DNA of 40,000 nucleotides from Blastocatellia bacterium (GTDB lineage: Bacteria; Acidobacteriota; Blastocatellia; UBA7656): the NCBI GenBank assembly GCA_963726785.1, contig CAVSDJ010000007.1, positions 2,169,248 to 2,209,247 of the forward strand. The letters are read 5' to 3'. Positions 2,646 through 39,742 of this stretch are shown piece by piece. The notes beneath the pieces are model-generated. The model did not search any database and had not been told where the DNA came from. It was given only the letters and a program-made list of their open reading frames with translations. A program made the translations under genes and the position numbers. The first letter of the stretch is position 1, and each line of letters opens with the position of its first letter.

Positions 2646-3884
2646 ATGCGAATACTGGTCGTCTCAAATTATTATCCGCCTCACTTCATAGGCGGTTACG
2701 AACTCGGCTGCAGGGATGTTGTCGAAGCGCTCAAATCTCGCGGGCATCAGGTCAGGGTTCTAACCAGCACTTACGGCGTAAACCGCGCGGAGCATTCCGA
2801 TTCCGTATACAGGTGGTTGGAAACAGACCTTGCGCTCGACATCAAAGACTCTTCCGAAGATTTGATCAAGGTCGTTAAGAAAGAATCAATCAACCAGCGA
2901 GCTTTCAATCGCATTTCTCGCGAATTTTTACCGGACGTGGTTTATGTGTGGAATGCGACTCACATCTCCATATCAATCGCCATCAAAGCTCAGCAGGTAG
3001 GGCTTGCGGTCTGTTATTTCATTTCCGACCATTGGCTGGCTCGATGGGAGAGTGACGCTTTGTATTCGATCAAGCATCGCTCTCCGCGCAGGTTCCATCG
3101 GCGGCTGATCTGGAAGACGCTCAAATCTTTGCTGAACGCTTCAGGGATTCTGCCGCGCGTTGACTTGGATTTGAGCCGCGTTCAGTTCGCCAGCCATTTT
3201 CTCAAGCGAGCCGCTTTAGAGGCTGACAGGCCCGTACAAAATGCAGAGGTGATTCATTGGGGGGTCGATGTAAACCGGTTCCCCTTTAATGAGACGGCGC
3301 ATAATCCGAGGCGGCTTTTGTACGTCGGGCAGGTCACATTGCTCAAAGGTGTACAGACGGTTGTCGAAGCGCTCAAGCTGATAGTCGAGCAGCCGTATTA
3401 TCGTTCGACGACGCTGACAATTGTCGGTGGCCCGGATTACGATAACCGAATTCACAAGCTCGTTTCTTCGCTCGGCCTTGAAGATAACGTCCGATTTACC
3501 GGGCTGATTCCGCGCGATCAACTTCCGGCCATCTATCGAGAGCACGACATACTCTTATTCCCATCAATCTGGGATGAGCCGTTCAGCATAACGCTGCTTG
3601 AAGCGATGTCATCCGGGTTAGCCGTTGTGGGAACAAACACGGGTGGCAGTTCTGAAATCCTTAAAGACGAGATCAATGCATTGGTCTTTGCGAAAGAGGA
3701 TGCAGAAGCTTGCGCCGGTCAAATAGCGCGACTCATTAAAGACGCAGAGCTTTTTGAACGAGTCAGGCGAAACGGGCGACGCACGGTTGAAGAGAATTTC
3801 AGGCTTGAAGCGATGGTGAATAGAATTGATCTTTCATTAAAGAAGCAGGCCGGATTAAGAGAAAGCGCCTCGGTTGAACCATGA
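2646..3884 (+). CDS. Glycosyltransferase, GT4/GT-B family
   Basis: 412 aa. N-terminal MRILVVSNYYPP and C-terminal EPFSITLLEAMSSGLAVVGTNTGG typical of GT4 enzymes. Confidence 0.8.
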   Translation: MRILVVSNYYPPHFIGGYELGCRDVVEALKSRGHQVRVLTSTYGVNRAEHSDSVYRWLETDLALDIKDSSEDLIKVVKKESINQRAFNRISREFLPDVVYVWNATHISISIAIKAQQVGLAVCYFISDHWLARWESDALYSIKHRSPRRFHRRLIWKTLKSLLNASGILPRVDLDLSRVQFASHFLKRAALEADRPVQNAEVIHWGVDVNRFPFNETAHNPRRLLYVGQVTLLKGVQTVVEALKLIVEQPYYRSTTLTIVGGPDYDNRIHKLVSSLGLEDNVRFTGLIPRDQLPAIYREHDILLFPSIWDEPFSITLLEAMSSGLAVVGTNTGGSSEILKDEINALVFAKEDAEACAGQIARLIKDAELFERVRRNGRRTVEENFRLEAMVNRIDLSLKKQAGLRESASVEP

Positions 3885-5092: not shown

Positions 5093-5172
5093 GTATTGGA
5101 AGTAGAGAGGATTGCTGCGGGGATCGTGAAATTATGAGGTCAACATACTTAACGAAATAGCAATTTGACTCG

Positions 5173-6891
5173 ATGAAAAGGGAGTCGCACTCGCCGCAGC
5201 CGACACTGCCGACTGCAGATTTTGCAATGAACAACATGTCTTTGACTGAATCAAAAGGATCAGCTACGGCTTTTGCAAAAGAGAGACCGAATCTATGGGA
5301 CTTGCAGTCAATTTCAAGCGTCCTCTATCCCAGGTTTACCATATTAGATCTGCTTGATCAGTCAGAGGACGGCGCGATTTTCCTGGCTCAGGATGAGAGT
5401 GCCAGGTCCGAGGGTCGCGATCTTATAGTCAAGCTAAAGGTACTGTCGGAGCAGGCTCGGCTTGATCGAAAGAAGCTGGAGTTGTTTTATCTCGAAACTC
5501 GCGCGGCGGCAAAACTATCGCATAAGAACATTATAAAGACCTGGGAAGCAGAGCAGATCGGAAATATTCACTTCTGCAAGATTGAGCACAAGCCTGACTG
5601 CGAAAGCCTGCGCAGCCTGCTTGAACTCAAGGCATGGCTGGATACGCAACTTGCGGCGGCCATCACTCTGCAAATCGCCGAAGCTCTCGATTACGCTTAC
5701 AGGCAAGGCGTGATGCATTTGAGGTTGCAACCGGAGAGCATCCTTATTGACCCGGAAGGCACCGCGCTTATTACGGACTTCGGCATCGAAAAGCGCAATG
5801 AATTGAGATGGGCGCATCAGGAACGAGCGCGGAGCATGCCCGCGTTTTATTGCAGCCCTGAACAGGCAAACGGTCAGGATGTTGACGTGCACAGTGACCT
5901 TTATTCTCTGGGCATCATTTTGTATGAAATGCTGACAGACCGCGTGCCTTTCGATTATCAAAATCCCGACGTCGTCCTGCACAAACACAGAACTCAAATG
6001 CCTGAGCCCCCCTATGTATTCCGCTCAGACTTGCCCGCTCCCGTATCAGCAGTTGTGATGAGCCTGCTTGAGAAGCAGCCAATTAAACGTCCTCAACTCC
6101 CTGCGAATTTGCAAGCCGCGTTAAATGGAATTATTCAGAAGCAGAAAATCAGCCCCGATGTGCCTATATTAGAACTGGAAATTGATGATGGAATGATTTC
6201 CGGCGCGGTCGTTGATGAAGACAAAAAGGTCAGCGAACCGCCTCGCCTCGAATCCGATTTATCACACTCTGAAGGAAATGAGCCCCTGATTGGATGGGAC
6301 GATTTTGCACACGCGGAAGATGCCTTGATCTTAGAGCCTGTCGCGCGCGAGCAAATTGAATCAAGCGTAGCACGACGTGAACGATTTGAACCGCCTACGA
6401 TAACCGTTATCGAGCCGCCTCTGCATGAATTAATTGAGCATAGCCCCACGGCTGAAACCACTGCGAAGGTAATTGCCAGCCAACAAGAGAGTCCACGGTC
6501 TGCTCCGGCAGAGATGCGGACGAAATTGTTTCTCGGCTTATTAATTATCATCGTCGCAGCCCTGGCGCTAACCCTGTTTGAGCCTGCCATATCGTTCCGC
6601 AGTCAGGGGCCGACAAATTCCCCGCAGGAAGAAGCGACAAAAGAAGGCTCGACGGAAGCCGTGCAACCTGCAAAGCCAGCTTTAAACAGTGTTGAAGACC
6701 GCGCGCCGCTCGACGACAAAGTAGGCTCTACTCGTTCCGATAAGATACGAACTTCGAGTCGCGTTCAGGGACGCGCTGCGCTGCGTTATTCCAGGCAAAA
6801 ACCGATAGTTCGCGCTACGCCGCGTAGATTCAAGAGCAACACCGCCGCACGCGCTGCAAAGCGCGCCCGAATACGCGCTCGTTATAACTGA
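5173..6891 (+). CDS. Membrane-anchored Hanks-type Ser/Thr kinase homologue with degenerate catalytic loop (predicted pseudokinase)
   Basis: 572 aa. Kinase subdomains are recognisable (VKLK, DFG, SPEQ, DLYSLGIILYEML) but the catalytic loop reads HLRLQPES. One TM helix (LFLGLLIIIVAALALTLF) and a basic C-terminal tail. Start could also be the ATG at 5227. Confidence 0.7.
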   Translation: MKRESHSPQPTLPTADFAMNNMSLTESKGSATAFAKERPNLWDLQSISSVLYPRFTILDLLDQSEDGAIFLAQDESARSEGRDLIVKLKVLSEQARLDRKKLELFYLETRAAAKLSHKNIIKTWEAEQIGNIHFCKIEHKPDCESLRSLLELKAWLDTQLAAAITLQIAEALDYAYRQGVMHLRLQPESILIDPEGTALITDFGIEKRNELRWAHQERARSMPAFYCSPEQANGQDVDVHSDLYSLGIILYEMLTDRVPFDYQNPDVVLHKHRTQMPEPPYVFRSDLPAPVSAVVMSLLEKQPIKRPQLPANLQAALNGIIQKQKISPDVPILELEIDDGMISGAVVDEDKKVSEPPRLESDLSHSEGNEPLIGWDDFAHAEDALILEPVAREQIESSVARRERFEPPTITVIEPPLHELIEHSPTAETTAKVIASQQESPRSAPAEMRTKLFLGLLIIIVAALALTLFEPAISFRSQGPTNSPQEEATKEGSTEAVQPAKPALNSVEDRAPLDDKVGSTRSDKIRTSSRVQGRAALRYSRQKPIVRATPRRFKSNTAARAAKRARIRARYN

Positions 6892-11230: not shown

Positions 11231-13609
11231 TTATCTATTCCATTTCCAATCACGAATCTCAGGCAAATCATCGCCGTGCTGCGTTATATATTCTCTATGC
11301 TCGATCAGCTTGTCACGCATTCTCTGTTTCACATGCGCGGCAACGCGCTCAAGGCGCGGCACGCGCTCGATGACATCAATCACAAGATGAAAACGATCAA
11401 GGTCGTTTAGCACCACCATATCAAATGGAGTCGTCGTGGTTCCTTCCTCCTTGTAGCCTCGCACATGCAGATTTCTGTGATTCGTTCGGCGGTAGGTCAG
11501 CCGGTGAATCAGCCACGGGTAACCGTGAAAAGCAAAGATCACAGGTTTATCTATGGTGAAGAGAGAATCGAAATCTTTATCCGACAAACCGTGCGGGTGT
11601 TCTGTAGCCGGTTGAAGCTTCATCAGATCAACTACGTTTACCACGCGCACTTTCAGGTCGGGGAAGAACTGGCGGAGCAGGTCTACTGCGGCCAGAGTCT
11701 CAAGCGTTGGAACGTCTCCCGCGCAAGCCATCACCACATCGGGTTCGACGCCCTCATCATTGCTCGCCCATTGCCATATGCTGATTCCGGCGGTGCAGTG
11801 CTTTATGGCGGCGTCCATATCCAGGTACTGCAACGCGGGTTGCTTTCCGGCTACGATGACGTTGACGTAATTGCGACTTCGCAGGCAGTGGTCTGTTACC
11901 GAAAGCAAGGTGTTCGCGTCCGGCGGAAGATAGACACGGATGACCTCTGATTTCTTATTAACTACGTGATCAATGAAGCCCGGGTCTTGATGGCTGAACC
12001 CGTTGTGATCTTGCCGCCAGACGTGAGAAGTCAGCAGGTAGTTCAGCGAAGCAATAGGCCGCCGCCATTCGATGTGGCGTGTAGTCTTCAACCACTTGGC
12101 GTGCTGATTGAACATCGAATCCACGATGTGAATAAAAGCCTCATAACATGAAAAGAGTCCGTGTCGCCCTGTCAGAAGATACCCCTCAAGCCAGCCCTGG
12201 CACATGTGCTCGCTCAACACTTCCATCACACGACCATCCGCAGAGAGGTGATCATCGCCCGGCAGGACCGTGGCCGCCCAGACTCTGTCAGTCGCTTCAA
12301 AGAGCGCGTTGAGGCGATTTGAAGCGGTCTCGTCCGGCCCCATCACGCGAAAGTTTTTGCTGTCGGCGTTACGCTTCATCACGTCGCGCAGGAATTTCCC
12401 CATCACGCGAGTTGCTTCCGCTTCAACGTTACCCGGTACGGGCACTTCCACGGCATAGTCGCAGAAATCAGGCATCCGCAGGTCTTTGAGCAAGAGTCCG
12501 CCGTTGGCATGCGGGTTCGCTCCCATGCGGCGGTCGCCTCTCGGAGCCAACTCCGCAAATTCCGCGCGCAGACTTCCATTCTCATCAAAGAGTTCTTCAG
12601 GCTTATAGCTCAACATCCACTGTTCGAGCATACGTAAATGCTCAGGCTTGCTGGCCAACTCCGAAAGCGGCACCTGATGCGAGCGAAAAGTACCTTCCAT
12701 CTCTAAGCCGTCCACAGCCTTTGGCCCTGTCCATCCCTTTGGAGACTTGAGCACGATCATCGGCCACTGCGGGCGGTTATGGAAACCGTTAAGCCGCGCT
12801 TCTTTTTGTATGGCCTCGATCTCGGAAAGCGCATTCTCAAGAGTCGCCGCCATCAGGTGGTGCATCTGTTCCGGTTCACTCCCCTCGACGTAATAGGGGT
12901 GATAGCCGTAGCCGACCAGCAGGCTCGTTAATTCTTCTTTGCTGATACGCGCAAGCACGGTCGGGTTAGCTATCTTATAACCGTTCAGGTGCAGTATCGG
13001 CAGCACAGCGCCATCTCGCACAGGGTTCACAAACTTGTTAGAGTGCCAACTGGCAGCAAGCGGGCCGGTTTCCGCCTCGCCATCGCCGATGACGCAGCAG
13101 GCAATCAAGTCAGGGTTATCAAAGACTGCGCCATAAGCGTGCAGCAATGCGTAGCCGAGTTCTCCGCCTTCGTGAATTGAGCCGGGAGTTTCGGGCGCTA
13201 CGTGACTGGGGATGCCGCCGGGAAAAGAGAACTGCTTGAACAGTCTTTTCATCCCTTCCGCATCCTGAGAAATATTCGGATAAACCTCGCTGTAGGTTCC
13301 TTCCAAATACGTGCTGGCGACCAGCCCCGGCCCGCCGTGCCCCGGCCCCGCGATATAAATCACATTCAAATCGTGCTCTTTAATCAGGCGATTGAGGTGG
13401 ACGTAAATAAAGTTCAACCCCGGCGTTGTGCCCCAATGACCGAGCAGGCGCGGCTTGACGTGTTCGAGTTTCAGAGGCTCGCGTAGCAACGGGTTATCGT
13501 AAAGATATATTTGCCCGACTGAAAGATAGTTTGCCGCCCTCCAATAAGCGTTAATGCGGCGAACATCATCAGCATCGAGCGGTGAGCCATCCGTTTCAAG
13601 CGTCTTCAT
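11231..13609 (-). CDS. xfp: Xylulose-5-phosphate/fructose-6-phosphate phosphoketolase
   Basis: 792 aa. N-terminus [17 protein letters not shown], then [11 protein letters not shown] and EGGELGYAL motifs, typical of phosphoketolases at typical length. Confidence 0.95.
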
Positions 13610-24883: not shown

Positions 24884-25120
24884 TTACGAGGCTGCCGGGT
24901 CTTTCATACATCTCACCTCGCCGTCATCGTAAACAAACTCATATTCAAACTCTTTCTCCCACTCCTCAGCAGCTATGTTGTTGGGGGCGTTGGTCATTGA
25001 AGAGAAAGAAGATTGTTTTCCAGTAGGTAGATAAGCATCTTGGCGCGGGCGTGGATGTATCAATGGGCAACCTGGTGTCCAGACTCGAAGGCCATTCGAA
25101 AGCACTGAATGATGCGTCAA
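24884..25120 (-). CDS. Hypothetical small acidic protein (start uncertain)
   Basis: 78 aa by the ORF track using TTG at 25120, 6 nt after the intI stop. An internal ATG at 24997 would give 37 aa. No RBS seen. Confidence 0.3.
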   Translation of the reverse strand: MTHHSVLSNGLRVWTPGCPLIHPRPRQDAYLPTGKQSSFSSMTNAPNNIAAEEWEKEFEYEFVYDDGEVRCMKDPAAS

Positions 25121-25125
25121 AAGGA

Positions 25126-26082
25126 TCAGCTTCTGTCCAAAGGACTCCTCACACCTTTTCCTCCTCGATTCAGTACGTGCGTGTAGATCATCGTAGTGCT
25201 TACGTCTTGATGGCCCAGCAATTCTTGCACGGTACGTATATCGTAGCCGTCCTCTAACAAGTGGGTAGCAAAGCTATGTCGAAATGTGTGGCAACTACCG
25301 GGCTTGCTAATGCCCGCTGTTCGTATTGCTGCTTTGACCGCTTTCTGTAACACTTGCTCATTCACATGGTGGCGTCGCACTGCTTGAGAGCGCGGGTCAA
25401 TAGAGCGCTTCGATGCCGGAAAGACATACTGCCAGTGCCATTCCCGGTTGGCATTGCGATATTTCCTCTCCAGAGCGAAAGGCAAGTAAGCCTCGCCGTA
25501 TCCTTCATCAAGGTCAAGCTTGTGAAGGGCTTTAACTTTAGCCAGATGCCTGTGCATTTGTGGTCTGACAGAGTCAGGTAGTATGGTGACGCGGTCCCTC
25601 CCGCCTTTGCCATCGCGGACTATTACCTGACTCATGCTGAAATCCAAATCTTTGACGCGGAGTCTCAGACACTCCATCAATCTCAGACCAGAGCCGTACA
25701 AGAGGCTTGCCATCAGCCAAAGCGAGCCATCGAGGTGACCTAAAATAGCCTGTACTTCCGCCTTGGTGAAGACGACAGGCAACCTTGAAGGCTTCTGAGC
25801 CCGCTCTACATTGTCAAGCCAGTCTAGCGGCTGTTTAAGAACATCTCTGTAAAGGAACAGGATAGCGCTCATAGCCTGATTCTGAGTAGAAGCAGCAACA
25901 TTCCTATCTAAAGCGAGGTGAGAAAGGAAGGCAGTGACTTCAAGGTGGCCCATATCAGAAGGGTGGCGTTTGTTGTGGAATAGGATAAACTCTTTAACCC
26001 ATCGGAGGTAAGCTTGTTCAGTCCTGATGCTGAAATGTCTAACTCGGATGGTGTTGCGAACCTGATCGAGAAGTTTAGGCAT
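25126..26082 (-). CDS. intI: Integron integrase (tyrosine recombinase)
   Basis: 318 aa. Box [17 protein letters not shown], box [41 protein letters not shown], and the integron-specific extra segment [30 protein letters not shown]. Divergent from an attC array. Confidence 0.93.
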
Positions 26083-26170
26083 AAAAAGTAAGAAAAGACG
26101 TATAACTAAGCGAAAGGCTGCTAAGTTATATTTAAGAGATAAGGATACCGGGAATGAGGTAGATTATACG

Positions 26171-26223
26171 TCGTAAAAGAAGTAAAATTCTACTTCTTTT
26201 ACGAGGTCTACTTCTAGTTAGAC
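26171..26223 (+). other. Candidate attI site
   Basis: GTTAGAC at 26217-26223 is the first R-type box after intI and the first cassette sequence starts at its TT. It is preceded by GTCTAC (26206-26211, imperfect inverse), a third TACTTCT copy, and a perfect 14 bp inverted repeat at 26171-26184 / 26191-26204. Confidence 0.6.
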
Positions 26224-26428
26224 AGTCGCGTACGAAATAGAGTGAGTACTCGCACGCCTCCGCGCCGCTAGTGGGCGACATTGTTCCGAGTCACCGCCGC
26301 GCCGCAGTAGCGTTAGGCTGAATATGCAAATAGAAAGAATGAGCAGCATCATGCTAGCTAACACTGTAGGATTGATTCGGCAGCAAGCGGCGCGGCAGTG
26401 CGCGCAGAGGCGTGTGACAAGACACGAT
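26218..26428. other. ORF-less cassette, family S1 copy 1 (cassette 1)
   Basis: 211 bp. Shares blocks tcgcgtacgaaat, acgccNccg, cgccgcgccgcag, gcaagcggcgcggc, gacacgat with 33149-33357, 38107-38317 and 38664-38872. Confidence 0.85.
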
Positions 26429-26531
26429 GTCTAACTATTGCATGCAGCGGAGCGCAGTATGCAAATTTCACATGGTTCGCACTAGCTGAGTCGGTCAACA
26501 GCCCCGCGCCCGCTGATGCCGGGCGTTGGGC
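26429..26531 (+). repeat. attC site 1 (103 bp class)
   Basis: R'' GTCTAAC at 26429, L''/L' GCAGCGGAGCGC...GCGCCCGCTGAT, R' GTTGGGC at 26525. Confidence 0.85.
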
Positions 26532-30051: not shown

Positions 30052-30142
30052 GCCCAACAAACGCATGCAGCGGAGGCCGCGAAGCCAGTTTCTCATCGTT
30101 AGCCAGTTATTCACGCGGCCCCGCTGATGCTGGGCGTTAGAC
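30052..30142 (+). repeat. attC site 6 (91 bp)
   Basis: R'' GCCCAAC at 30052, GCAGCGGAGGCCGCGAAG...CGCGGCCCCGCTGAT, R' GTTAGAC at 30136. Confidence 0.85.
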
Positions 30143-30544
30143 CCTTGCGGCGGTGCTGTTGAGGATCAGTGTTCGGGTTGCCAATCGAAATTCCAACCAA
30201 CTGCCTCTTTCTCGCTTCACACCTCCCTTCCTGCCGCCGCTTGTTTCTTCTTCTTTCTTGCTCCTGCTTTGCTGCTTGCTTCCACACTCTTGCTATGAAG
30301 TCTGGCAGCCCTAATGTGGGATTGCACAAGATTAGCCGGGATGGTTCACCAAGCACTAGCACAAAGCTATGCTCTTGCTTGCTGACAGATCGTCGCCTGT
30401 TGTAGCGTTTGTGGGTCGGTCATTTTGGCAATAGAGTAGAAGCAACAATCAGCATCAGCCAACAGCAGAGGGAAACGAGCAAGGGTTCAGATAAAAGCAG
30501 AAGGAAGAAATTGGGATGGAATCGGTTTGGTAAAATGAAAGCGG
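30137..30544. other. ORF-less cassette, family L variant a, copy 1 (cassette 7)
   Basis: 408 bp. Identical to 38970-39377. Shares 5' block cccttgcg..ggaggatca.tg.tcg..ttgc.aat and central gctatgc.cttgct.gc.gacagatcgt.gcctg.tgtagcg with the other L cassettes. Confidence 0.85.
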
Positions 30545-30647
30545 GTCTAACTACAGCATGCAGCGGAGCGCGGTAAGCACAGTTGAAAAGGCTTGGGCTA
30601 GCTGAGTTAGTCTGCAACAACGCGCCCGCTGATGCTGGGCGTTAGAC
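30545..30647 (+). repeat. attC site 7 (103 bp class)
   Basis: R'' GTCTAAC at 30545, GCAGCGGAGCGCGGTAAGC...CGCGCCCGCTGAT, R' GTTAGAC at 30641. Confidence 0.85.
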
Positions 30648-33064: not shown

Positions 33065-33154
33065 GTCTAACATTTGCATGCAGCGGAGGCCGCAAACAAG
33101 GACTCAAATGAATGCGACTGCCACACGCGGCCCCGCTGATGCTGGGCGTTAGAC
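33065..33154 (+). repeat. attC site 11 (90 bp)
   Basis: R'' GTCTAAC at 33065, GCAGCGGAGGCCGCAAAC...CGCGGCCCCGCTGAT, R' GTTAGAC at 33148. Confidence 0.85.
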
Positions 33155-33357
33155 AGTCGCGTATGAAATACTGCGAGTGAACGTACGCCGCCGCGCCGTC
33201 AGTCGGCCAGATTGTTGCGAGTGATCGCCGCGCCGCAGAAGCGTATAGTTGAGTCTGCAAAAAGAAAGCTTGAGCAGGTGTGCAATTGGCAAGAGCGAAA
33301 GAAAGCAAGAGGCAAGCGGCGCGGCAGAAGGCGCAGCGGCGTCTGCCAAGACACGAT
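33149..33357. other. ORF-less cassette, family S1 copy 2 (cassette 12)
   Basis: 209 bp. Same conserved blocks as the other S1 copies. Confidence 0.85.
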
Positions 33358-33460
33358 GTCTAACAACAGCATGCAGCGGAGCGCGGTTATCACGCTTGAA
33401 ATGGCTTGGGCTAGCTGAGTTAGTCTGAATCAACGCGCCCGCTGATACTGGGCGTTAGAC
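33358..33460 (+). repeat. attC site 12 (103 bp class)
   Basis: R'' GTCTAAC at 33358, GCAGCGGAGCGCGGTTATC...CGCGCCCGCTGAT, R' GTTAGAC at 33454. Confidence 0.85.
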
Positions 33461-33851
33461 CCTTGCGTGAGTGCGGTGGAGGATCAATGCTCGACTTGCC
33501 AATGATTCCTTCCAACACAATGCCTCTTCTCAGTTTCGGCCTTCATCTTGCCCTGTCGCTTGTTCATCTCTGGGTCACACCCCTCTTGCCTTCTTGCTCA
33601 GGATTGCGCTCTCTCAATGCGATCTCGCTCTACTGATGCAGTTGCGAACAAACGGACAACAATGCTTGAACAAGCGGCAGGGCAAAGCTATGCTCTTGCT
33701 CGCCGACAGATCGTTGCCTGATGTAGCGCTTGATAACAACGAGGCCATGCGGCATAAACAGGGTGGAGCAACAGCGACCAACAGATTTGAGTCGAAGCAG
33801 AAGGGAGAAAGAAGAATCTGGCAATGAAACAGGTCATAGAAATAAAGACGG
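33455..33851. other. ORF-less cassette, family L variant c, copy 1 (cassette 13)
   Basis: 397 bp. Differs from 37361-37757 at a single position (33501 a vs 37407 t). Confidence 0.85.
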
Positions 33852-33944
33852 GTCTAACTAGAGCATGCAGCGGAGGCCGCGAAGCGAGTTTCTCATGGTT
33901 ACTTTCAGTTCTCCGCGCGGCCCCGCTGATGCTGGGTGTTAGAC
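33852..33944 (+). repeat. attC site 13 (93 bp)
   Basis: R'' GTCTAAC at 33852, GCAGCGGAGGCCGCGAAG...CGCGGCCCCGCTGAT, R' GTTAGAC at 33938. Confidence 0.85.
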
Positions 33945-34008
33945 GTCTGACTTTTCAGCAACTCTCCAATCTGCCGCAATGCGAAGGCCGAAATGATATA
34001 CTTCACCT

Positions 34009-34302
34009 ATGCAATTTGAGTGGGACTCAACAAAAGCAACGGCTAATCTATCAAAGCACGGAGTCTCATTCGATGAAGCCAAGTCTGTCTTTGACGATCC
34101 GCTCTACGTCGATTTTTACGATCCTGATCATTCAGACGGGGAGAATGGTTACATCATTATTGGGCAGTCTCAGCAAGGTCGTTTATTGATGGTGTCGTAC
34201 ACGGAAAGAAATGATACTATCCGAATTATCAGTTCGAGAGAAGTAACAGCAACGGAGGTAACTGTTCAGACTTCGGCGAATGGGCGAAGCTCAGCGATTT
34301 GA
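34009..34302 (+). pseudogene. brnT: BrnT-family (DUF497) toxin gene interrupted at codon 83 by an IS
   Basis: MQFEWDSTKATANLSKHGVSFDEAKSVFDDPL...RIISSREVTATE is BrnT-like. After 34257 the frame runs into IS sequence. Joining 34257 to 35708 restores ...TATERREAYEEG-stop, overlapping the brnA start. Confidence 0.8.
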
Positions 34303-35699
34303 CATAGGGTGTAAACTTTGCGCGTGAAGCTTGATCTCGACAACGCTACCCGCGAAGAGTTAATCCAACTCAACTTGCAGTTGTTTGCTCAACTTCAAGT
34401 TTTGCAGGAACGTGTCAAACAGCTAGAAGCAGAACTGGAATCTTTGCGCGGCGGCGGCTCACACAGCAACCCTCCTAGCTTCGTCAAGGCTAATCGCCCT
34501 GCTCGCAATAAGAAAAAGAAGCGCAAGAAGCGTCTGCACGGATTCTCGCGCAGGCTTGATTGGGTTACTGCTCGCGTCGAGCACTCGCTTAATCAGTGCC
34601 CAGAGTGTCTAGTTTCGCTCAAAGGCCGACGCGTGGTCAGCTCTCGACAGATCATTGAGCTTCCATCGGTTCAGGTCCAGGTCGTTGAGCACAAACTTGT
34701 AGAGCGGTCTTGTCCCAACTGCCTCAAGCGCTGGACGCCGCCTCTGGATTTATCATCACTTGCAGTAGGCAAACAGCGATTCGGCATTAGCGTTCAATCC
34801 GAAGTAGCACTGTTGCGCGAGCAATGCAGGCTTCCCTTCAGAGTCATACAAGAGTATCTCCAAGCTAGATTCAACCTGCGGATAAGTCTTGGCCAGATAG
34901 TGGCCTTAGTTGAAGGTGTGGCTCGGCGAGGCAAAGCAATAGTCGAATCTTTCAAAGACGAAATTCGAGCCTCTCCTGTAGTAAATGGCGATGAAACGAG
35001 TTGGCGAGAAAACGGGCAAAACGGATATGTGTGGAGTTTCTCAACCGATAAGGTCAGATATTTTCTATACCGCAAAAGCCGTTCAGCAGAAGTTGTGAAA
35101 GAAGTTCTCGGCCAGCAGTTCGAAGGCGTTGTGGTGAGCGATTTCTACGCGGCCTACAACGCGCATCTGGGATTGCACCAGCGATGCTGGGTGCATCTGC
35201 TGAGAGATATACACGAACTGAAAGAGAAGCATGCCAAAGATAAAGGGTTGAAAAAGTGGGCGGTAGCAGTCAAAGCGATCTATGAGGAAGCTAAGGCATA
35301 CAAAGGAGCAAACGCGAGGTTAGGGCCGGTAGAGCAGAAAGCAGAGCGAGTAAAGCGTCAGCGAGAGTATGAACAAAAGTTGATGAGAGTGTGCCGACCA
35401 CACTTGAAGAAGAAGAGGCCGCAGTCAACGCTATGTGAAAGGATAGAGAGATACTTGCCGGAGATGTTCGTGTTCATAGCAGACGCTCGTGTGCCGTCAG
35501 ATAATAACGCGGCAGAGCGAAGTGTGAGACATGTAGTTGTAAGTCGCAAGATCAGTGGAGGGACGAGATCTGAAACGGGGAGCGAGACAAAGAGTATATT
35601 GGCATCATTGTTTGGAACGTGGAGATTGCAAGGACTAGATTTCTATCAATGCTGCTGGAATTTACTGGCAGCAAATAATCCGACACTCTGAACAGTTAC
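34258..35699 (+). mobile_element. IS66-family insertion sequence (single-ORF type), 1442 bp
   Basis: Perfect 13 bp terminal inverted repeats gtaactgttcaga (34258-34270) / tctgaacagttac (35687-35699). 8 bp direct target duplication caacggag at 34250-34257 and 35700-35707. Confidence 0.9.
34318..35691 (+). CDS. IS66-family transposase
   Basis: 457 aa. N-terminal leucine zipper, zinc-finger CPEC...CPNC, DDE core (DETSWRE...VVSDFYAAY...CWVHLLRD...NNAAERSVR) as in IS66 TnpC. Confidence 0.85.
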   Translation: MRVKLDLDNATREELIQLNLQLFAQLQVLQERVKQLEAELESLRGGGSHSNPPSFVKANRPARNKKKKRKKRLHGFSRRLDWVTARVEHSLNQCPECLVSLKGRRVVSSRQIIELPSVQVQVVEHKLVERSCPNCLKRWTPPLDLSSLAVGKQRFGISVQSEVALLREQCRLPFRVIQEYLQARFNLRISLGQIVALVEGVARRGKAIVESFKDEIRASPVVNGDETSWRENGQNGYVWSFSTDKVRYFLYRKSRSAEVVKEVLGQQFEGVVVSDFYAAYNAHLGLHQRCWVHLLRDIHELKEKHAKDKGLKKWAVAVKAIYEEAKAYKGANARLGPVEQKAERVKRQREYEQKLMRVCRPHLKKKRPQSTLCERIERYLPEMFVFIADARVPSDNNAAERSVRHVVVSRKISGGTRSETGSETKSILASLFGTWRLQGLDFYQCCWNLLAANNPTL

Positions 35700-35717
35700 C
35701 AACGGAGCGGGAAGCGT

Positions 35718-35957
35718 ATGAAGAAGGTTGAAACAGAAATGGATGATGATCTTCGGCCAGAATATGAGCTGAAAAGCTTGCGTGTAAGAAGGCTAGGACC
35801 AGGACGTAAGAGTTTCGGAGGGCTAGTGGTTCGCCTAGAACCAGACGTTGCAGAGGTCTTTCCAGATGCAGAGTCAGTGAACGAGGCGCTACGGTTCCTG
35901 ATAAGAGTGACTAAAGAGAATAAGCCCTCAGTTAGTGACAGCCGAGGCGACGTCTGA
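35718..35957 (+). CDS. brnA: BrnA-like antitoxin
   Basis: 79 aa. DDLRPEYELKSL...LVVRLEPDVAEVFPDAESVNEALRFLI resembles antitoxins paired with BrnT. The present TGA stop is partly supplied by the adjacent IS. Confidence 0.7.
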   Translation: MKKVETEMDDDLRPEYELKSLRVRRLGPGRKSFGGLVVRLEPDVAEVFPDAESVNEALRFLIRVTKENKPSVSDSRGDV

Positions 35958-37273
35958 GTGATCGGGGACATGGGTAACAAAAAAGTCCGGGCACATGGGT
36001 TACACTTTTTTCTTATGTCGCCACAGCTTCCCCAACTCGTCTTCGATTCGCATCTGCGCTTCGATTAGACGACCGAGTTTGACTGGGCCAAAGTAGACGT
36101 TCCATATACCATTATCTATTTCTTCGAGGCCGACCCATTGACCGGCACACGTTATACTGACATTTACCCAGTCACAGTTCCAGCGGATTCCTCCGTTGTA
36201 GCTCACGTAGCGCGTTTCATAATGCGCAGGATATTCCAAGGCCGGAACTTTCTTAGGGTACGGGCGCGGGCTTGGCTGGTAGACCGAAGCTGGCGTTTCA
36301 AGATTGATCGCTTCGTGAGGGCGAACTTCGTTGTACTCTTGCCGGAAAGCGTTGAACTTGCGCTGCTGCGCTCGCAGATTGCCAGCCGCAGGTCGCGTGG
36401 TTTCTGCTTTTAACGTGCGATGCATACGTTCGTGTCGGCCATTTTGTTGGGGCTTACCCGGCTCGATCAGTTCGGGCAGTATGCCAAGTTGAATCCACCA
36501 GGCTGATAGTGAAGAAAGGCGGGCAAGCGAGACGGTGGCAAAGGGCACGCCGTTATCAGTGCGGATGCGCTCAGGCAAGCCGAACTCGCGAAATACCCTC
36601 TCGAATACTGATTTGGCGGAAGCACACTCAGTCGTAAACAAAGCTTGGCAGCCAAGCAAGTAGCGCGAGAATCCATCGGTGATGGTCAGAGGATAGCAAT
36701 AGATACCGTCGTGAGTTTTGAACTGGCCTTTGAAGTCAGCGCACCAGACTTGATTGGGAGCGGCTATAATAGAAGAAGGTTTGCCGGGATGAGAGAGATG
36801 ACGGCGCTTGCGAGCTTTCTTTACAAGCCCGTGACGAGCGAGTAGGTCACAGACAGTTGTTCGAGCGGGTCAGATGCGGTTGGGATCTCGTTTAGACAAC
36901 AGCTTGAGTAGTTTCTTCGGTCCCCAGGTAGGGTGAAGGCGACGAGCATCAAGCAGGGCGTCAACGATGTCAGGATCAGTTTGGTGAGGGCATGAATTAG
37001 GCTTGCGAGAGCGATCTTCAAGGCCGGAGATGGAGTCTTGCTGGTAGCGATTGATCCACTTATAGGCAGTCTTTCTGCTGATGCCGTAATGGAGGCATAG
37101 TTCTGTGATGGAAAGAGATTGACGAAGGAAATCGGCGATGAACTGAGTCTTGTGGTCCATAGGTGATAAATTACTCCAGGGCATCTTGCACCTCCTTTAA
37201 TGGAGGACAGTATGCCGGAAAAGTGTTACCCATGTACCTGGACTAATCTGTTACCTATGTACCTGGACTATAC
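35956..37273 (-). mobile_element. IS481-family insertion sequence (boundaries approximate)
   Basis: About 45 bp imperfect terminal inverted repeats, each holding two copies of a GTCC(A/G)GG(T/C)ACATGGGT(A/T)AC-like motif. Candidate 5 bp target duplication cgtct at 35951-35955 and 37274-37278. Confidence 0.65.
36000..37184 (-). pseudogene. IS481-family transposase with an in-frame TGA stop
   Basis: N-terminal HTH ORF (36870-37184) and the rve/DDE ORF (36000-36659) are in the same frame. Translation is continuous (…DPNRI-TGA-PARTTVCDLLARHGLV…WCADFKGQF…) except for TGA at 36870-36872. Confidence 0.8.
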
Positions 37274-37274
37274 C

Positions 37275-37366
37275 GTCTAACAAGCGCATGCAGCGGAGGC
37301 CGCGAATTGGGTTTCTCATGGTTGCTTGACTGCCGCTCGCGGCCTCGCTGATGCTTGGCGTTAGAC
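37275..37366 (+). repeat. attC site 14 (92 bp)
   Basis: R'' GTCTAAC at 37275, GCAGCGGAGGCCGCGAAT...CGCGGCCTCGCTGAT, R' GTTAGAC at 37360. Confidence 0.85.
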
Positions 37367-37757
37367 CCTTGCGTGAGTGCGGTGGAGGATCAATGCTCGA
37401 CTTGCCTATGATTCCTTCCAACACAATGCCTCTTCTCAGTTTCGGCCTTCATCTTGCCCTGTCGCTTGTTCATCTCTGGGTCACACCCCTCTTGCCTTCT
37501 TGCTCAGGATTGCGCTCTCTCAATGCGATCTCGCTCTACTGATGCAGTTGCGAACAAACGGACAACAATGCTTGAACAAGCGGCAGGGCAAAGCTATGCT
37601 CTTGCTCGCCGACAGATCGTTGCCTGATGTAGCGCTTGATAACAACGAGGCCATGCGGCATAAACAGGGTGGAGCAACAGCGACCAACAGATTTGAGTCG
37701 AAGCAGAAGGGAGAAAGAAGAATCTGGCAATGAAACAGGTCATAGAAATAAAGACGG
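37361..37757. other. ORF-less cassette, family L variant c, copy 2 (cassette 15)
   Basis: 397 bp. 1 mismatch to 33455-33851. Confidence 0.85.
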
Positions 37758-37850
37758 GTCTAACTAGAGCATGCAGCGGAGGCCGCGAAGCGAGTTTCTC
37801 ATGGTTACTTTCAGTTCTCCGCGCGGCCCCGCTGATGCTGGGTGTTATAC
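37758..37850 (+). repeat. attC site 15 (93 bp)
   Basis: Identical to attC 13 except R' reads GTTATAC (37844-37850). Confidence 0.85.
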
Positions 37851-38009
37851 GCTCGCGTGCGAAATGACTTGAATACACGAACGCCTCCGCGCTGGCAGGT
37901 CTACAATGACTTTCAGTGAGATGCCGCGCTTGTCTTGACTGGCGCGAGTTTCAATTCTATTTTGGAGGCGCGGCCTTTGGGCGCTGAGGCGTGCGGGCAA
38001 AGACGCGCC
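37845..38009. other. ORF-less cassette, family S2 copy 1 (cassette 16)
   Basis: 165 bp. Shares ttatacgctcgcgt.cgaaat..cttgaatacacg.acgcc.ccgcgc, tgccgcgc, ttgac, ggcgcggc with 38415-38579 and 39475-39639. Confidence 0.85.
37935..37963 (+). promoter_or_regulatory. Candidate sigma70-type promoter inside S2 copy 1
   Basis: TTGACT - 17 nt - TATTTT, pointing into the downstream cassettes. Confidence 0.35.
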
Positions 38010-38112
38010 GTCTAACTACAGCATGCAGCGGAGCGCGGTTATCTGGTTTCACATGATGCGCGTTGGCTGAGTTGGTCTACAGCAACGCGCCCGCTGATAC
38101 TGGGCGTTAGAC
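38010..38112 (+). repeat. attC site 16 (103 bp class)
   Basis: R'' GTCTAAC at 38010, GCAGCGGAGCGCGGTTATC...CGCGCCCGCTGAT, R' GTTAGAC at 38106. Confidence 0.85.
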
Positions 38113-38317
38113 AGTCGCGTACGAAATGCTTTGAGTGCCCGAACGCCGCCGTGCCGTCAGTGGACGAGATTGATCTGAGCCATCGCCGCGCCGCAGAAAC
38201 GTGAAGCCGAATATGCAAACAGAAGCATAGAACAGCATCGTGCAAGCTGATATTGTAAGAGTGATTTGGCAGCAAGCGGCGCGGCAGAAGGCCCGGCGGC
38301 GTATCAAATGACACGAT
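38107..38317. other. ORF-less cassette, family S1 copy 3 (cassette 17)
   Basis: 211 bp. Same conserved S1 blocks. Confidence 0.85.
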
Positions 38318-38420
38318 GTCTAACTACAGCATGCAGCGGAGCGCGGTAAGCTGGTTTCAAATGGCTTGCTCCGGCTGAGTGGGTCTACAACAACGCGCCC
38401 GCTGATGCTGGGCGTTATAC
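38318..38420 (+). repeat. attC site 17 (103 bp class)
   Basis: R'' GTCTAAC at 38318, GCAGCGGAGCGCGGTAAGC...CGCGCCCGCTGAT, R' GTTATAC at 38414. Confidence 0.85.
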
Positions 38421-38579
38421 GCTCGCGTACGAAATGGCTTGAATACACGGACGCCTCCGCGCTTGCGAGTCTGCAATCACTTATAGTGAGATGCCGCGCC
38501 TGAGTTGACACGCTGCTGAAACGAAACTGTTTTGGAGGCGCGGCAGAGGGGCGCGGCGGCGTGGAGGCGATGACGCTCG
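38415..38579. other. ORF-less cassette, family S2 copy 2 (cassette 18)
   Basis: 165 bp. Same S2 conserved blocks. The central ~35 nt differ from copies 1 and 3. Confidence 0.85.
38505..38533 (+). promoter_or_regulatory. Candidate promoter inside S2 copy 2 (weaker -10)
   Basis: TTGACA - 17 nt - TGTTTT at the position homologous to the other S2 copies. Confidence 0.25.
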
Positions 38580-38669
38580 GTCTAACTACAGCATGCAGCG
38601 GAGCGCGCGAAGGAGGCTTCTCATGCTTGTCAGTGATTGCCGCGCGCCCGCTGATACTGGGCGTTAGAC
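38580..38669 (+). repeat. attC site 18 (90 bp, hybrid of the two classes)
   Basis: R'' GTCTAAC at 38580. Stem GCAGCGGAGCGCGCGAAG...CGCGCGCCCGCTGAT combines the long-class stem with the short-class centre. R' GTTAGAC at 38663. Confidence 0.85.
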
Positions 38670-38872
38670 CTCGCGTACGAAATGAAGTGAGTGCCCTAAC
38701 GCCGCCGCGCCGCCAGTCGGCGACATTGTTGCGAGTGATCGCCGCGCCGCAGAGGCGCTAGGCGGAATACGCAAATAGAAGGATGGATAGCATGCGACAG
38801 GCTGAAACTGTAACAGTGAAGACGAGGCAAGCGGCGCGGCGGGAGGCTTGGCGGCGTGTGACAAGACACGAT
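38664..38872. other. ORF-less cassette, family S1 copy 4 (cassette 19)
   Basis: 209 bp. Same conserved S1 blocks. The 5' end is 1 nt shorter (ttagacctcgcg vs ttagacagtcgcg). Confidence 0.85.
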
Positions 38873-38975
38873 GTCTAACTATAGCATGCAGCGGAGCGCG
38901 GTATGCACACTTCAAATGGCTTTCGCTGGCTCAATCGATCTACAGCCCCGCGCCCGCTGATGCTAGTCGTTAGAC
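38873..38975 (+). repeat. attC site 19 (103 bp class)
   Basis: R'' GTCTAAC at 38873, GCAGCGGAGCGCGGTATGC...CGCGCCCGCTGAT, R' GTTAGAC at 38969. Confidence 0.85.
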
Positions 38976-39377
38976 CCTTGCGGCGGTGCTGTTGAGGATC
39001 AGTGTTCGGGTTGCCAATCGAAATTCCAACCAACTGCCTCTTTCTCGCTTCACACCTCCCTTCCTGCCGCCGCTTGTTTCTTCTTCTTTCTTGCTCCTGC
39101 TTTGCTGCTTGCTTCCACACTCTTGCTATGAAGTCTGGCAGCCCTAATGTGGGATTGCACAAGATTAGCCGGGATGGTTCACCAAGCACTAGCACAAAGC
39201 TATGCTCTTGCTTGCTGACAGATCGTCGCCTGTTGTAGCGTTTGTGGGTCGGTCATTTTGGCAATAGAGTAGAAGCAACAATCAGCATCAGCCAACAGCA
39301 GAGGGAAACGAGCAAGGGTTCAGATAAAAGCAGAAGGAAGAAATTGGGATGGAATCGGTTTGGTAAAATGAAAGCGG
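38970..39377. other. ORF-less cassette, family L variant a, copy 2 (cassette 20)
   Basis: 408 bp. Identical to 30137-30544 (the ORF track shows identical spurious ORFs in both). Confidence 0.85.
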
Positions 39378-39480
39378 GTCTAACTACAGCATGCAGCGGA
39401 GCGCGGTAAGCACAGTTGAAAAGGCTTGGGCTAGCTGAGTTAGTCTGCAACAACGCGCCCGCTGATGCTGGGCGTTATAC
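39378..39480 (+). repeat. attC site 20 (103 bp class)
   Basis: Identical to attC 7 except R' reads GTTATAC (39474-39480). Confidence 0.85.
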
Positions 39481-39639
39481 GCTCGCGTACGAAATAACTT
39501 GAATACACGGACGCCGCCGCGCAGGCAGGTCTGCAATCACTTTGAGTGTGGTGCCGCGCCTGAGTTGACTGGCGCGAGTTTCAATTCTATGTTGAGGGCG
39601 CGGCAGAGGGGCGCGGAGGCGTGGTTGCAAAGACGCGAG
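39475..39639. other. ORF-less cassette, family S2 copy 3 (cassette 21)
   Basis: 165 bp. Same S2 conserved blocks. Confidence 0.85.
39565..39593 (+). promoter_or_regulatory. Candidate sigma70-type promoter inside S2 copy 3
   Basis: TTGACT - 17 nt - TATGTT. The next cassette carries a + strand ORF at 39900. Confidence 0.35.
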
Positions 39640-39742
39640 GTCTAACTACAGCATGCAGCGGAGCGCGGTAAGCTGGTTTCACATGGCTTGCGCTGGCTGA
39701 GTAAATCTACAGCCCCGCGCCCGCTGATACTGGGCGTTAGAC
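39640..39742 (+). repeat. attC site 21 (103 bp class)
   Basis: R'' GTCTAAC at 39640, GCAGCGGAGCGCGGTAAGC...CGCGCCCGCTGAT, R' GTTAGAC at 39736. Confidence 0.85.

Follow-up and report, generated by a model that had tools for sequence, protein, structure and literature searches.

A stretch of 40,000 nucleotides from the genome of a soil bacterium of the Blastocatellia (contig CAVSDJ010000007.1), referred to here as the window, holds a sedentary chromosomal integron of the phylum Acidobacteriota. The cassette array of this integron contains S1, a family of gene-less cassettes built on a conserved hairpin chassis, which is shared with a sister family, S2. The family is real, narrow in distribution and always a cassette. 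Comparison of its members favours a reading in which the chassis acts in cis as a fold of the single-stranded cassette, at the level of single-stranded DNA (ssDNA), and in which the apical loop would be a slot for variable cargo. The probability of this reading is put at roughly 40%.

The S1 cassettes and their nested helices

An earlier note on this DNA had described S1 as a mobile, four-copy family of ~210 base pairs (bp) without open reading frames (ORFs), with copies starting at 26218, 33149, 38107 and 38664. It listed conserved blocks that can pair in a nested way and a 103-bp attC site behind each copy. All four copies were found there and aligned, and the blocks are all present when checked on the sequence. 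Each copy lies on the plus strand. Copy 1 as a whole cassette spans 26218-26525 (payload 26218-26428, attC 26429-26531), copy 2 spans 33149-33454 (attC from 33358), copy 3 spans 38107-38414 (attC from 38318) and copy 4 spans 38664-38969 (attC from 38873).

The four copies align over ~210 bp plus the attC, with a mean column identity of 81% including the flanks. Pairwise identity between the payloads is only 0.73-0.81, which corresponds to a difference of 19-27%, and the copies are therefore old paralogues and not fresh duplicates. A signature pattern of 33 nucleotides (nt) has seven matches in the window, against 0.00 expected from shuffled sequences. Each S1 and S2 copy is exactly one cassette, and those of S1 run from TTAGAC to ...G/TT with the 103-bp attC.

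The mobile nature of the element was borne out. The copies are bounded by core sites (5′ TTRRRY) and by a 3′ attC with R″ RYYYAAC and R′ GTTRRRY, share one orientation in an array that adjoins intI and attI, and are found in varied contexts in more than one integron. All four copies in the window are linked to the 103-bp attC, but this association is not obligatory. An S1-type cassette on another Blastocatellia contig, L002, has a different, shorter attC, and the payload and the attC are therefore separable modules.

The S1 family is non-coding, and its members are gene-less cassettes. The term ‘ORF-less’ is accurate in this sense only, as minus-strand ORFs of 62-94 amino acids (aa) do overlap the copies. 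This assignment follows from three properties. The frames are not conserved or shared between copies, and that of copy 4 is interrupted by a 1-nt deletion and a stop codon. Variable columns fall about equally at the three codon positions (16/12/14 and 16/13/13), and there is no codon periodicity. The longest ORF, a minus-strand frame of 94 aa, has no homologue among 5.8 billion proteins.

The structure of the chassis was derived from A8, an alignment of 13 members drawn from 4 sources, namely five S1 sequences (the four of the window and L002) and eight S2 sequences. Within the S1 payload of ~210 nt, the chassis consists of three nested helices, P0ext, P1 and P2, and an unpaired 5′ motif, TAyGAAAT. 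The outermost helix, P0ext (TCGCGT/ACrCGA), is absent from the earlier note. It is ~90% paired and begins 1-2 nt inside the cassette boundary, where it directly continues the pairing of R′ with R″. In copy 1 its 5′ arm, TCGCGT, lies at 26226-26231 and overlaps the unpaired motif TACGAAAT (26231-26238); this whole region, 26226-26238, is invariant or nearly so across all 13 members. The 3′ arm, ACACGA, lies at 26422-26427, 1 nt before R″ GTCTAAC (26429-26435). An extra pair of varying type (A-T, G-C or C-G) bridges the R-box and P0ext in 10/13 members.

The middle helix, P1, has the consensus ACGCCkCCGCGCC/GGCGCnGnGGCGT. The 5′ arm of copy 1, ACGCCTCCGCGCC at 26254-26266 (block ACGCCkCCGyGCC), is partnered by CGCGCAGAGGCGT at 26401-26413, with the ..GGCGT block ending at 26413. 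The corresponding arms are 33185-33197/33330-33342 in copy 2, 38143-38155/38290-38302 in copy 3 and 38699-38711/38845-38857 in copy 4. The inner helix, P2, reads GCCGCGC(CGC)/(GCG)GCGCGGC. It joins GCCGCGCCGC at 26296-26305 to GCGGCGCGGC at 26387-26396 in copy 1, and is found at 33227-33236/33316-33325, 38185-38194/38276-38285 and 38741-38750/38831-38840 in copies 2, 3 and 4. All 10 bp of this stem are perfect in every S1 copy, as had been claimed for the four of the window, and a 7-bp core is invariant in 13/13 members. P2 of copy 1 encloses an S1-specific apical loop of ~81 nt (26306-26386), in which a conserved block, GAATATGCAAATAGAA, occupies 26320-26335.

The nested pairing of the arms is upheld by the alignment. 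When the R-box, P0ext, P1 and P2 are taken together over the 13 sequences, 92% of the cells are standard pairs, and this falls to 27-50% if the 3′ partner is displaced by 1-3 columns. The fold of a single copy has a z-score of -3.1 on the top strand and -2.6 on the bottom strand. Folded as circular ssDNA, the S cassettes surpass all others of the array in energy density, at -0.18 to -0.21 kcal/mol/nt versus -0.095 to -0.17. The energies of this circular form are equal on both strands.

S1 is under position-specific purifying selection: neither the arm cores nor the 5′ motif changes between members, although the loops are 20-40% divergent. Within the helices, 23 of the 37 pairs never vary across the 13 sequences and three change on both sides, one of these being a mostly unpaired pair at a helix end. 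Two pairs are informative. The pair at A8 columns 44-194, within P1, is U-A in six sequences, G-C in four and broken in three (T.C twice and G.A once). At the edge of P2, the pair at columns 88-174 is C-G in seven, U-A in three and U.G in three, as read on the top strand. The non-Watson-Crick cells comprise seven G.T, 13 A.C and 24 others, and neither strand is enriched in wobble pairs as a helix selected in RNA would be expected to be.

The outer stem of copy 1 had been noted for a T:A pair in place of G:C, and this difference is confirmed at 26259/26408. Copy 1 carries S2-type alleles on both arms at columns 44-194. The interpretation of the change as compensatory, which had led to the suggestion of a structured RNA or a folded ssDNA element, was not supported as an argument for a structured RNA: the pair is broken in 3/13 members, most pairs are invariant, and the covariation score is reached by 15 of 500 shuffles, which by the calibration of the tool lies within the range for related sequences under no structural constraint. 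The statistically supported covariation that was sought from a larger alignment was likewise not obtained, as far as 13 sequences allow.

The sister family S2 and relatives in other integrons

Three shorter cassettes in the window, which the earlier note did not link to S1, constitute S2. They lie on the plus strand at 37845-38106, 38415-38663 and 39475-39736. Copies elsewhere are located at 5475-5645 in L004, at 5105-5279, 11805-11976 and 12065-12238 in L015, and at 68-240 in L036. The 5′ end is shared with S1, as TTAkAC-nn-TCGCGTryGAAAT-n5-GArT-n6-ACGCCkCCGCGC. The core of the inner stem, GCCGCGC/GCGCGGC, and the 3′ end, GGCGCnGnGGCGT...GACrCGn-GTCTAAC, are also common to both.

The point of difference between S1 and S2 is the apical loop. 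The loop of S2 is short (~35 nt) and contains TTGACT-17 nt-TATnTT. The three window copies read TTGACT-17-TATTTT (37935-37963), TTGACA-17-TGTTTT (38505-38533) and TTGACT-17-TATGTT (39565-39593). In the same slot, S1 has an A/T-rich loop of ~80 nt with the conserved GAATATGCAAATAGAA block and no recognisable promoter or ORF. The TTGACT-17-TATnTT pattern is present in 7/8 S2 copies, with a variant in the eighth. Over the eight copies, from four sources, conservation is 96% in the -35 element, 90% in the -10 element and 71% in the spacer, and the spacing is always 17 nt. A sigma-70 promoter directed down the array would be expected to look like this, and the S2 cassettes are probably promoter cassettes, as predicted in silico.

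The conserved -35/-10 pair, spaced by 16-18 nt, that marks a promoter-bearing gene-less cassette is thus present in S2 in silico and lacking in S1. In S1 no site passed the threshold of the promoter scan, and when this was relaxed to 7/12 the five copies still showed none with a conserved position on either strand. The S1 loop was also inspected by eye and with a relaxed scan for sigma-54, extracytoplasmic function (ECF), extended -10 and minus-strand promoters, and nothing conserved was seen.

The S2 cassettes starting at 37845, 38415 and 39475, as well as that of L036, begin with TTATAC, and their reconstituted R′ would be GTTATAC opposite R″ GTCTAAC. These members would have a T.C mismatch within the R-box (A8 columns 6-219, 4/13 members).

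Across all collections scanned, the whole family comprises 13 distinct members, all of which are cassettes in Blastocatellia-type integrons. The 33-nt signature identified two true loci and one chance match in 185,579 species-representative genomes. Both true loci are on a single contig (CAWDRU010000002.1) of a Blastocatellia metagenome-assembled genome (MAG), L002 being S1-type and L004 S2-type. A looser pattern applied to metagenome contigs returned 31 loci, of which one was true (L015, with three S2 copies); the rest were mostly chance matches from the human gut. The pattern scan of viral contigs gave no matches, and a blastn search against plasmids gave no match. The intI-attI-S1 junction of the window recurs in an independent Logan contig (L001), where it is identical, including copy 1.

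Examination of 12 loci for 11 relatives of the integrase IntI yielded a new member only from L036. The IntI of L036 is 93% identical to that of the window, and the attI flank is ~92% identical up to the crossover core, after which the cassettes differ. The first cassette after the orthologous attI is S1 in the window and S2-type in L036. A possible relative is L041 (IntI 75% identical), in which the first cassette is truncated and its first 50 nt resemble the 5′ module of the S cassettes. Positions 1-170 of L041 (minus strand) begin GTTATGC..CTCAATATGCGGACGCCGCCGCGCC, and the contig ends before any 3′ arm. Its match to the covariance model is weak (E=6.5), and L041 is a possible third case of an S element placed first after attI. 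A search of 219 kb of DNA from related integrons with the covariance model R1, built on the 13 members, added none. The homologues, too, are each one cassette, set among different neighbours in other arrays.

The same upstream cassette end, gggccggtcagggaaagtgttttctcttgacttccttttcatagaacaa, precedes the S1-type cassette of L002 (~2964-3100, minus strand) and the S2-type cassette of L004 (5350-5400), which suggests either that a cassette pair was duplicated or that insertion took place repeatedly next to the same cassette. Short-read assemblies break within 150-400 nt of attI, in the first cassette or its attC, as seen in L001, L036, L037, L039, L040, L041, L043 and L044. Database survey of these arrays is therefore limited to long-read assemblies.

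A proposed fold of single-stranded DNA and its alternatives

The attC site is a hairpin folded from the bottom strand, and it is in this form that it is recognised by IntI. Within the array, the payload hairpin of an S cassette would keep the attC hairpins on either side of it at a tight, compact junction. Once the cassette is excised as a circle, this hairpin would stack on the attC R-box, so that the whole cassette may fold into a rod. Both foldings would promote attC folding and synapsis, and hence the excision and re-insertion of short cassettes. The raised mobility would in turn account for the multiplicity of S cassettes and their attI-proximal position.

Between action as RNA and action as ssDNA, the sequences lead us to favour DNA for four reasons. 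The helices are anchored at the point of recombination crossover and share an axis with the attC R-box, which is understandable for recombination, whereas an RNA would have no obvious reason for it. The promoter of S2 lies inside the loop, and its own transcript would lack the 5′ arms, yet the chassis is equally conserved. There is no strand-specific wobble signal. Finally, there are many S cassettes, and the position next to attI, which is the most recently filled, holds different members in sister integrons. As the loops of S1 and S2 differ, and the attC of L002 differs from that of the window copies, the chassis is independent of loop content and attC class. A more specific proposal, in which S1 and S2 would be a modular ‘mobility chassis’ combining the viroid-like rod, the tight attC junction, raised IntI-mediated excision and re-insertion, and the loop as a cargo slot, is considered unlikely as a whole.

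Several observations weigh against the ssDNA reading. The covariation is not significant in the 13 sequences, and the P1 pair that varies on both sides (columns 44-194) is the one broken in three of them. When the R boxes are excluded, ~60% of positions are invariant in the 5′ half compared with 37% in the 3′ arms. This higher conservation of the 5′ half could reflect recognition of the sequence, for example by a protein, instead of selected pairing. An S element is first in 2-3 of the ~12 integrons inspected, which is the chance expectation for an abundant cassette. With near-identical attC sites on either side, the minimum free energy (MFE) structure of the array is dominated by attC-attC pairing and is not a clean three-hairpin junction. 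The S1 loop and its conserved GAATATGCAAATAGAA block are also not accounted for.

A role for the fold at the RNA level, in read-through transcripts, is a close second to the ssDNA reading, though its probability is low. The element would be a structured sense RNA, either a small RNA (sRNA) with its seed in the ~80-nt A-rich loop or a cis-acting stabiliser, processing or anti-Rho-polarity element. Copy 1 would be transcribed from the integron promoter, and copies 3 and 4 from the S2 promoter cassettes that directly precede them. Of the four S1 copies, two do directly follow an S2 promoter cassette and another is beside attI. The strong sense-strand fold (z = -3.1), the consensus fold in five copies, the C-G/U-A/U.G changes of the P2 edge pair (7/3/3, columns 88-174) on the top strand and the conserved unpaired block in the S1 loop are consistent with this proposal, and RNA roles have been put forward for paralogous non-coding cassettes (Boucher et al. 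2006, PMC1382264). The evidence for a structured RNA is nevertheless weak. Rfam 15, a search suggested in the earlier note as a means to exclude a known family, returned no family matches over the whole window, with none at gathering scores and only chance-level matches at E<=10. Most pairs are invariant and the covariation lacks significance, while on the sense strand G.U cells (7) are fewer than A.C (13) or other mismatches (24). The element is not followed by a terminator, so the RNA would have no defined 3′ end, and in S2 an RNA from its own promoter cannot form the chassis. No antisense target complementary to S1 was found in the window. If the conserved element were instead double-stranded regulatory DNA, it would be a promoter or operator cassette in which the GC-rich motifs (two direct, two inverted) and TAyGAAAT are protein sites, with S1 using an alternative sigma factor or an acidobacterial promoter variant, or being an operator-only or silencer version. 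The -35 and -10 elements of S2, with their fixed spacing in 8/8 copies and their excess conservation over the spacer, speak for such a role, as do the gene-less Vibrionaceae cassettes with experimentally demonstrated sense or antisense promoters (PMC11014356). The intI-attI region has no consensus cassette promoter (Pc), so promoter cassettes would be useful, and the arms are conserved as sequence, more so in the 5′ half, and not by covariation. We judge this explanation unlikely, since no promoter-like site is conserved at any aligned position among the five S1 copies, whichever strand is read, and since independent sites leave the 92% complementarity of the arms unexplained unless they are simply inverted repeats.

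It is still less probable that S1 is a functionless passenger, that is, decayed or selfish filler whose arms would be relics (of S2-type cassettes or attC-like GC-rich stems, for instance) kept alike by gene conversion. The narrow distribution of the 13 members would fit this, and the alleles at columns 44-194 (T..C, G..A) and in a local hairpin (G..G, C..C) look as if reshuffled between paralogues; gene conversion and selfishness were both raised by Boucher et al. 2006 (PMC1382264). Gene conversion, however, would homogenise whole copies; the S loops differ from one another by 20-40%, yet all four sources and both subfamilies have the same arm cores and 5′ motif. Invariant arms with diverged loops are the signature of position-specific purifying selection. 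A small protein is highly improbable, whether read from the minus frame that ends at the TAA in the 5′ core site or as a basic peptide on the plus strand that terminates with the TAA of R″. The overlapping minus-strand ORFs and a C-terminal ‘...LLRRGD.S.Q.R.L.ARRR....SISYATV*’ common to copies 1-3 would be its basis. Against it stand the 1-nt deletion in both copy 4 and L002, the stop in copy 4, an upstream frameshift in copy 2, an early stop of copy 3 in the plus frame and start codons that are not conserved, in addition to the even spread of variable columns over codon positions and the lack of protein homologues described above.

Other identities were tried and rejected. An intrinsic terminator would require a T run, which is missing, and no terminator-like sites occur in the S1 and S2 regions. 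A LexA box was dismissed for want of a palindrome. No target-site duplications were seen that would indicate a miniature inverted-repeat transposable element (MITE).

The payload has some resemblance to attC, being an imperfect inverted repeat with a variable centre and a helix continuous with the R-box. Its GC-rich composition also recalls the stems of the attC class found in this integron (CAGCGG-A-GCGCGG / CCGCGC-CCGCTG). A second or inverted attC was nevertheless rejected as the identity of the payload. In attC, R″ (RYYYAAC) precedes R′ (GTTRRRY), the R-box is at the open end and the L-box faces the loop. In the payload the core sites are in the reverse order, 5′ GTTAGAC ... GTCTAAC 3′, on both strands. 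The R-box thus has the loop on the wrong side, and neither an L-box nor a layout of extrahelical bases is present. Similarly, S1 is like the repetitive extragenic palindromic (REP) and REPIN repeats in being a short, GC-rich, non-coding, multi-copy and possibly selfish hairpin with conserved arms and variable loops. In contrast to these repeats, and to a MITE, each of the 13 S members is exactly one integron cassette, attC included, and none was found outside an array, whether in the 25 kb of chromosome in the window (1-25000) or in the non-array parts of the other loci. Mobilisation of S cassettes would be by IntI, unlike that of REP/REPIN by the RAYT/Y1 transposase.

S1 belongs to a known class of repeated gene-less cassettes, within which its architecture is unusual. 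In the literature available as open-access texts, no description of the S1 family or of a hairpin chassis running from boundary to boundary was found. We know of no such chassis architecture described for the Vibrio families, on a limited literature search. Their arrays contain repeated non-coding cassettes with lineage-restricted homologues, for which a selfish nature or a promoter or RNA function has been proposed (Boucher et al. 2006, PMC1382264). Like these paralogous cassettes, S1 has no ORF, is repeated in one array, has close homologues only in related hosts and is conserved in sequence beyond neutrality, and the same explanations are proposed for it. The differences are that the host of S1 and S2 belongs to another phylum, Acidobacteriota (Blastocatellia), and that their nested-hairpin chassis reaches the cassette boundaries, with two subfamilies that differ only in the apical loop. 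Promoter activity has been shown experimentally for gene-less cassettes of Vibrionaceae superintegrons (Blanco et al. 2024, PMC11014356). S2 resembles these in its conserved sense -35/-10 elements, as detected in silico, and S1 shares the chassis and array position of S2. S1 itself, unlike the promoter cassettes of that study, is without a conserved promoter-like site, and the Vibrio promoter cassettes have not been reported to share a hairpin framework as S1 and S2 do.

Integron setting and significance

The integrase gene, intI, lies on the minus strand at 25126-26082 and encodes a protein of 318 aa that scores above the curated cut-off of the integron integrase family TIGR02249 (E=2.3e-146). 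The genes on its left are ordinary chromosomal ones, among them those for a phosphoketolase, an acetate kinase and a Ser/Thr kinase. The acetate kinase shares 92% identity with that of a Blastocatellia MAG and 80-84% with proteins of Pyrinomonadaceae. To the right of intI is an array of at least 21 cassettes, which starts at the attI crossover core GTTAGAC (26217-26223, plus strand), the cassettes themselves beginning at 26218. Copy 1 of S1 is the first cassette after attI and begins at GTT/AGAC. The array has 21 same-strand attC 3′ ends between 26508 and 39738, compared with 0.03 expected by chance. The S-type accounts for 7/21 mapped cassettes in the window, which are partly arranged in an alternating run, S2-S1-S2-S1.

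A search for a consensus sigma-70 promoter (>=9/12) in intI and the intI-attI spacer (25100-26250) found none on either strand, and the Pc of the array is therefore not evident. A GTATAAy box near the start of intI is common to the relatives. The attI site contains a perfect 13-bp inverted repeat, CGTAAAAGAAGTA (26172-26184) / TACTTCTTTTACG (26191-26203), 14 nt upstream of the GTTAGAC crossover. Imperfect versions of this repeat occur in the related integrons L036, L037, L039 and L040.

Other cassettes of the array show further repetition. Those starting at 30137, 30642, 33455, 37361 and 38970 share a conserved 5′ leader, TTAGACCCTTGCG-n-GGAGGATCArTGyTCG..TTGCCAAT, which also occurs in L015. 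The cassettes are otherwise dissimilar, and the 505-bp member is CT-rich with no convincing ORF. The cassette at 30137-30641 is exactly duplicated at 38970-39474 (505/505 identical), and that at 33455-33938 is nearly so at 37361-37844 (483/484). The latter pair brackets a 3.4-kb ‘cassette’ (33939-37360) enlarged by insertion sequences (IS). Within this lie an IS66-family transposase (34318-35691, NF033517) with small upstream ORFs and, on the minus strand, an IS481/IS3-like transposase fragment (36000-36659).

Chromosomal integron arrays consist in sizeable part of gene-less cassettes, for which selfish, promoter and RNA roles are under discussion. To our knowledge, the integrons of Acidobacteriota have barely been studied. 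S1 and S2 offer a clean natural comparison, as the same hairpin framework occurs with a promoter in the loop (S2) and without one (S1). The pair could be used to ask whether attC folding and cassette mobility depend on the structure of the payload, whether arrays with no obvious Pc are driven by promoter cassettes, and whether untranslated, highly structured cassettes affect the expression of their neighbours. Should no role in mobility, promotion or neighbour expression hold, S1 would be one more lineage-restricted family of non-coding cassettes. If the proposal of a mobility chassis is true, it would be the first cis-acting DNA structure besides attC shown to tune cassette mobility, and a natural example of selfish cassettes that deliver promoters.

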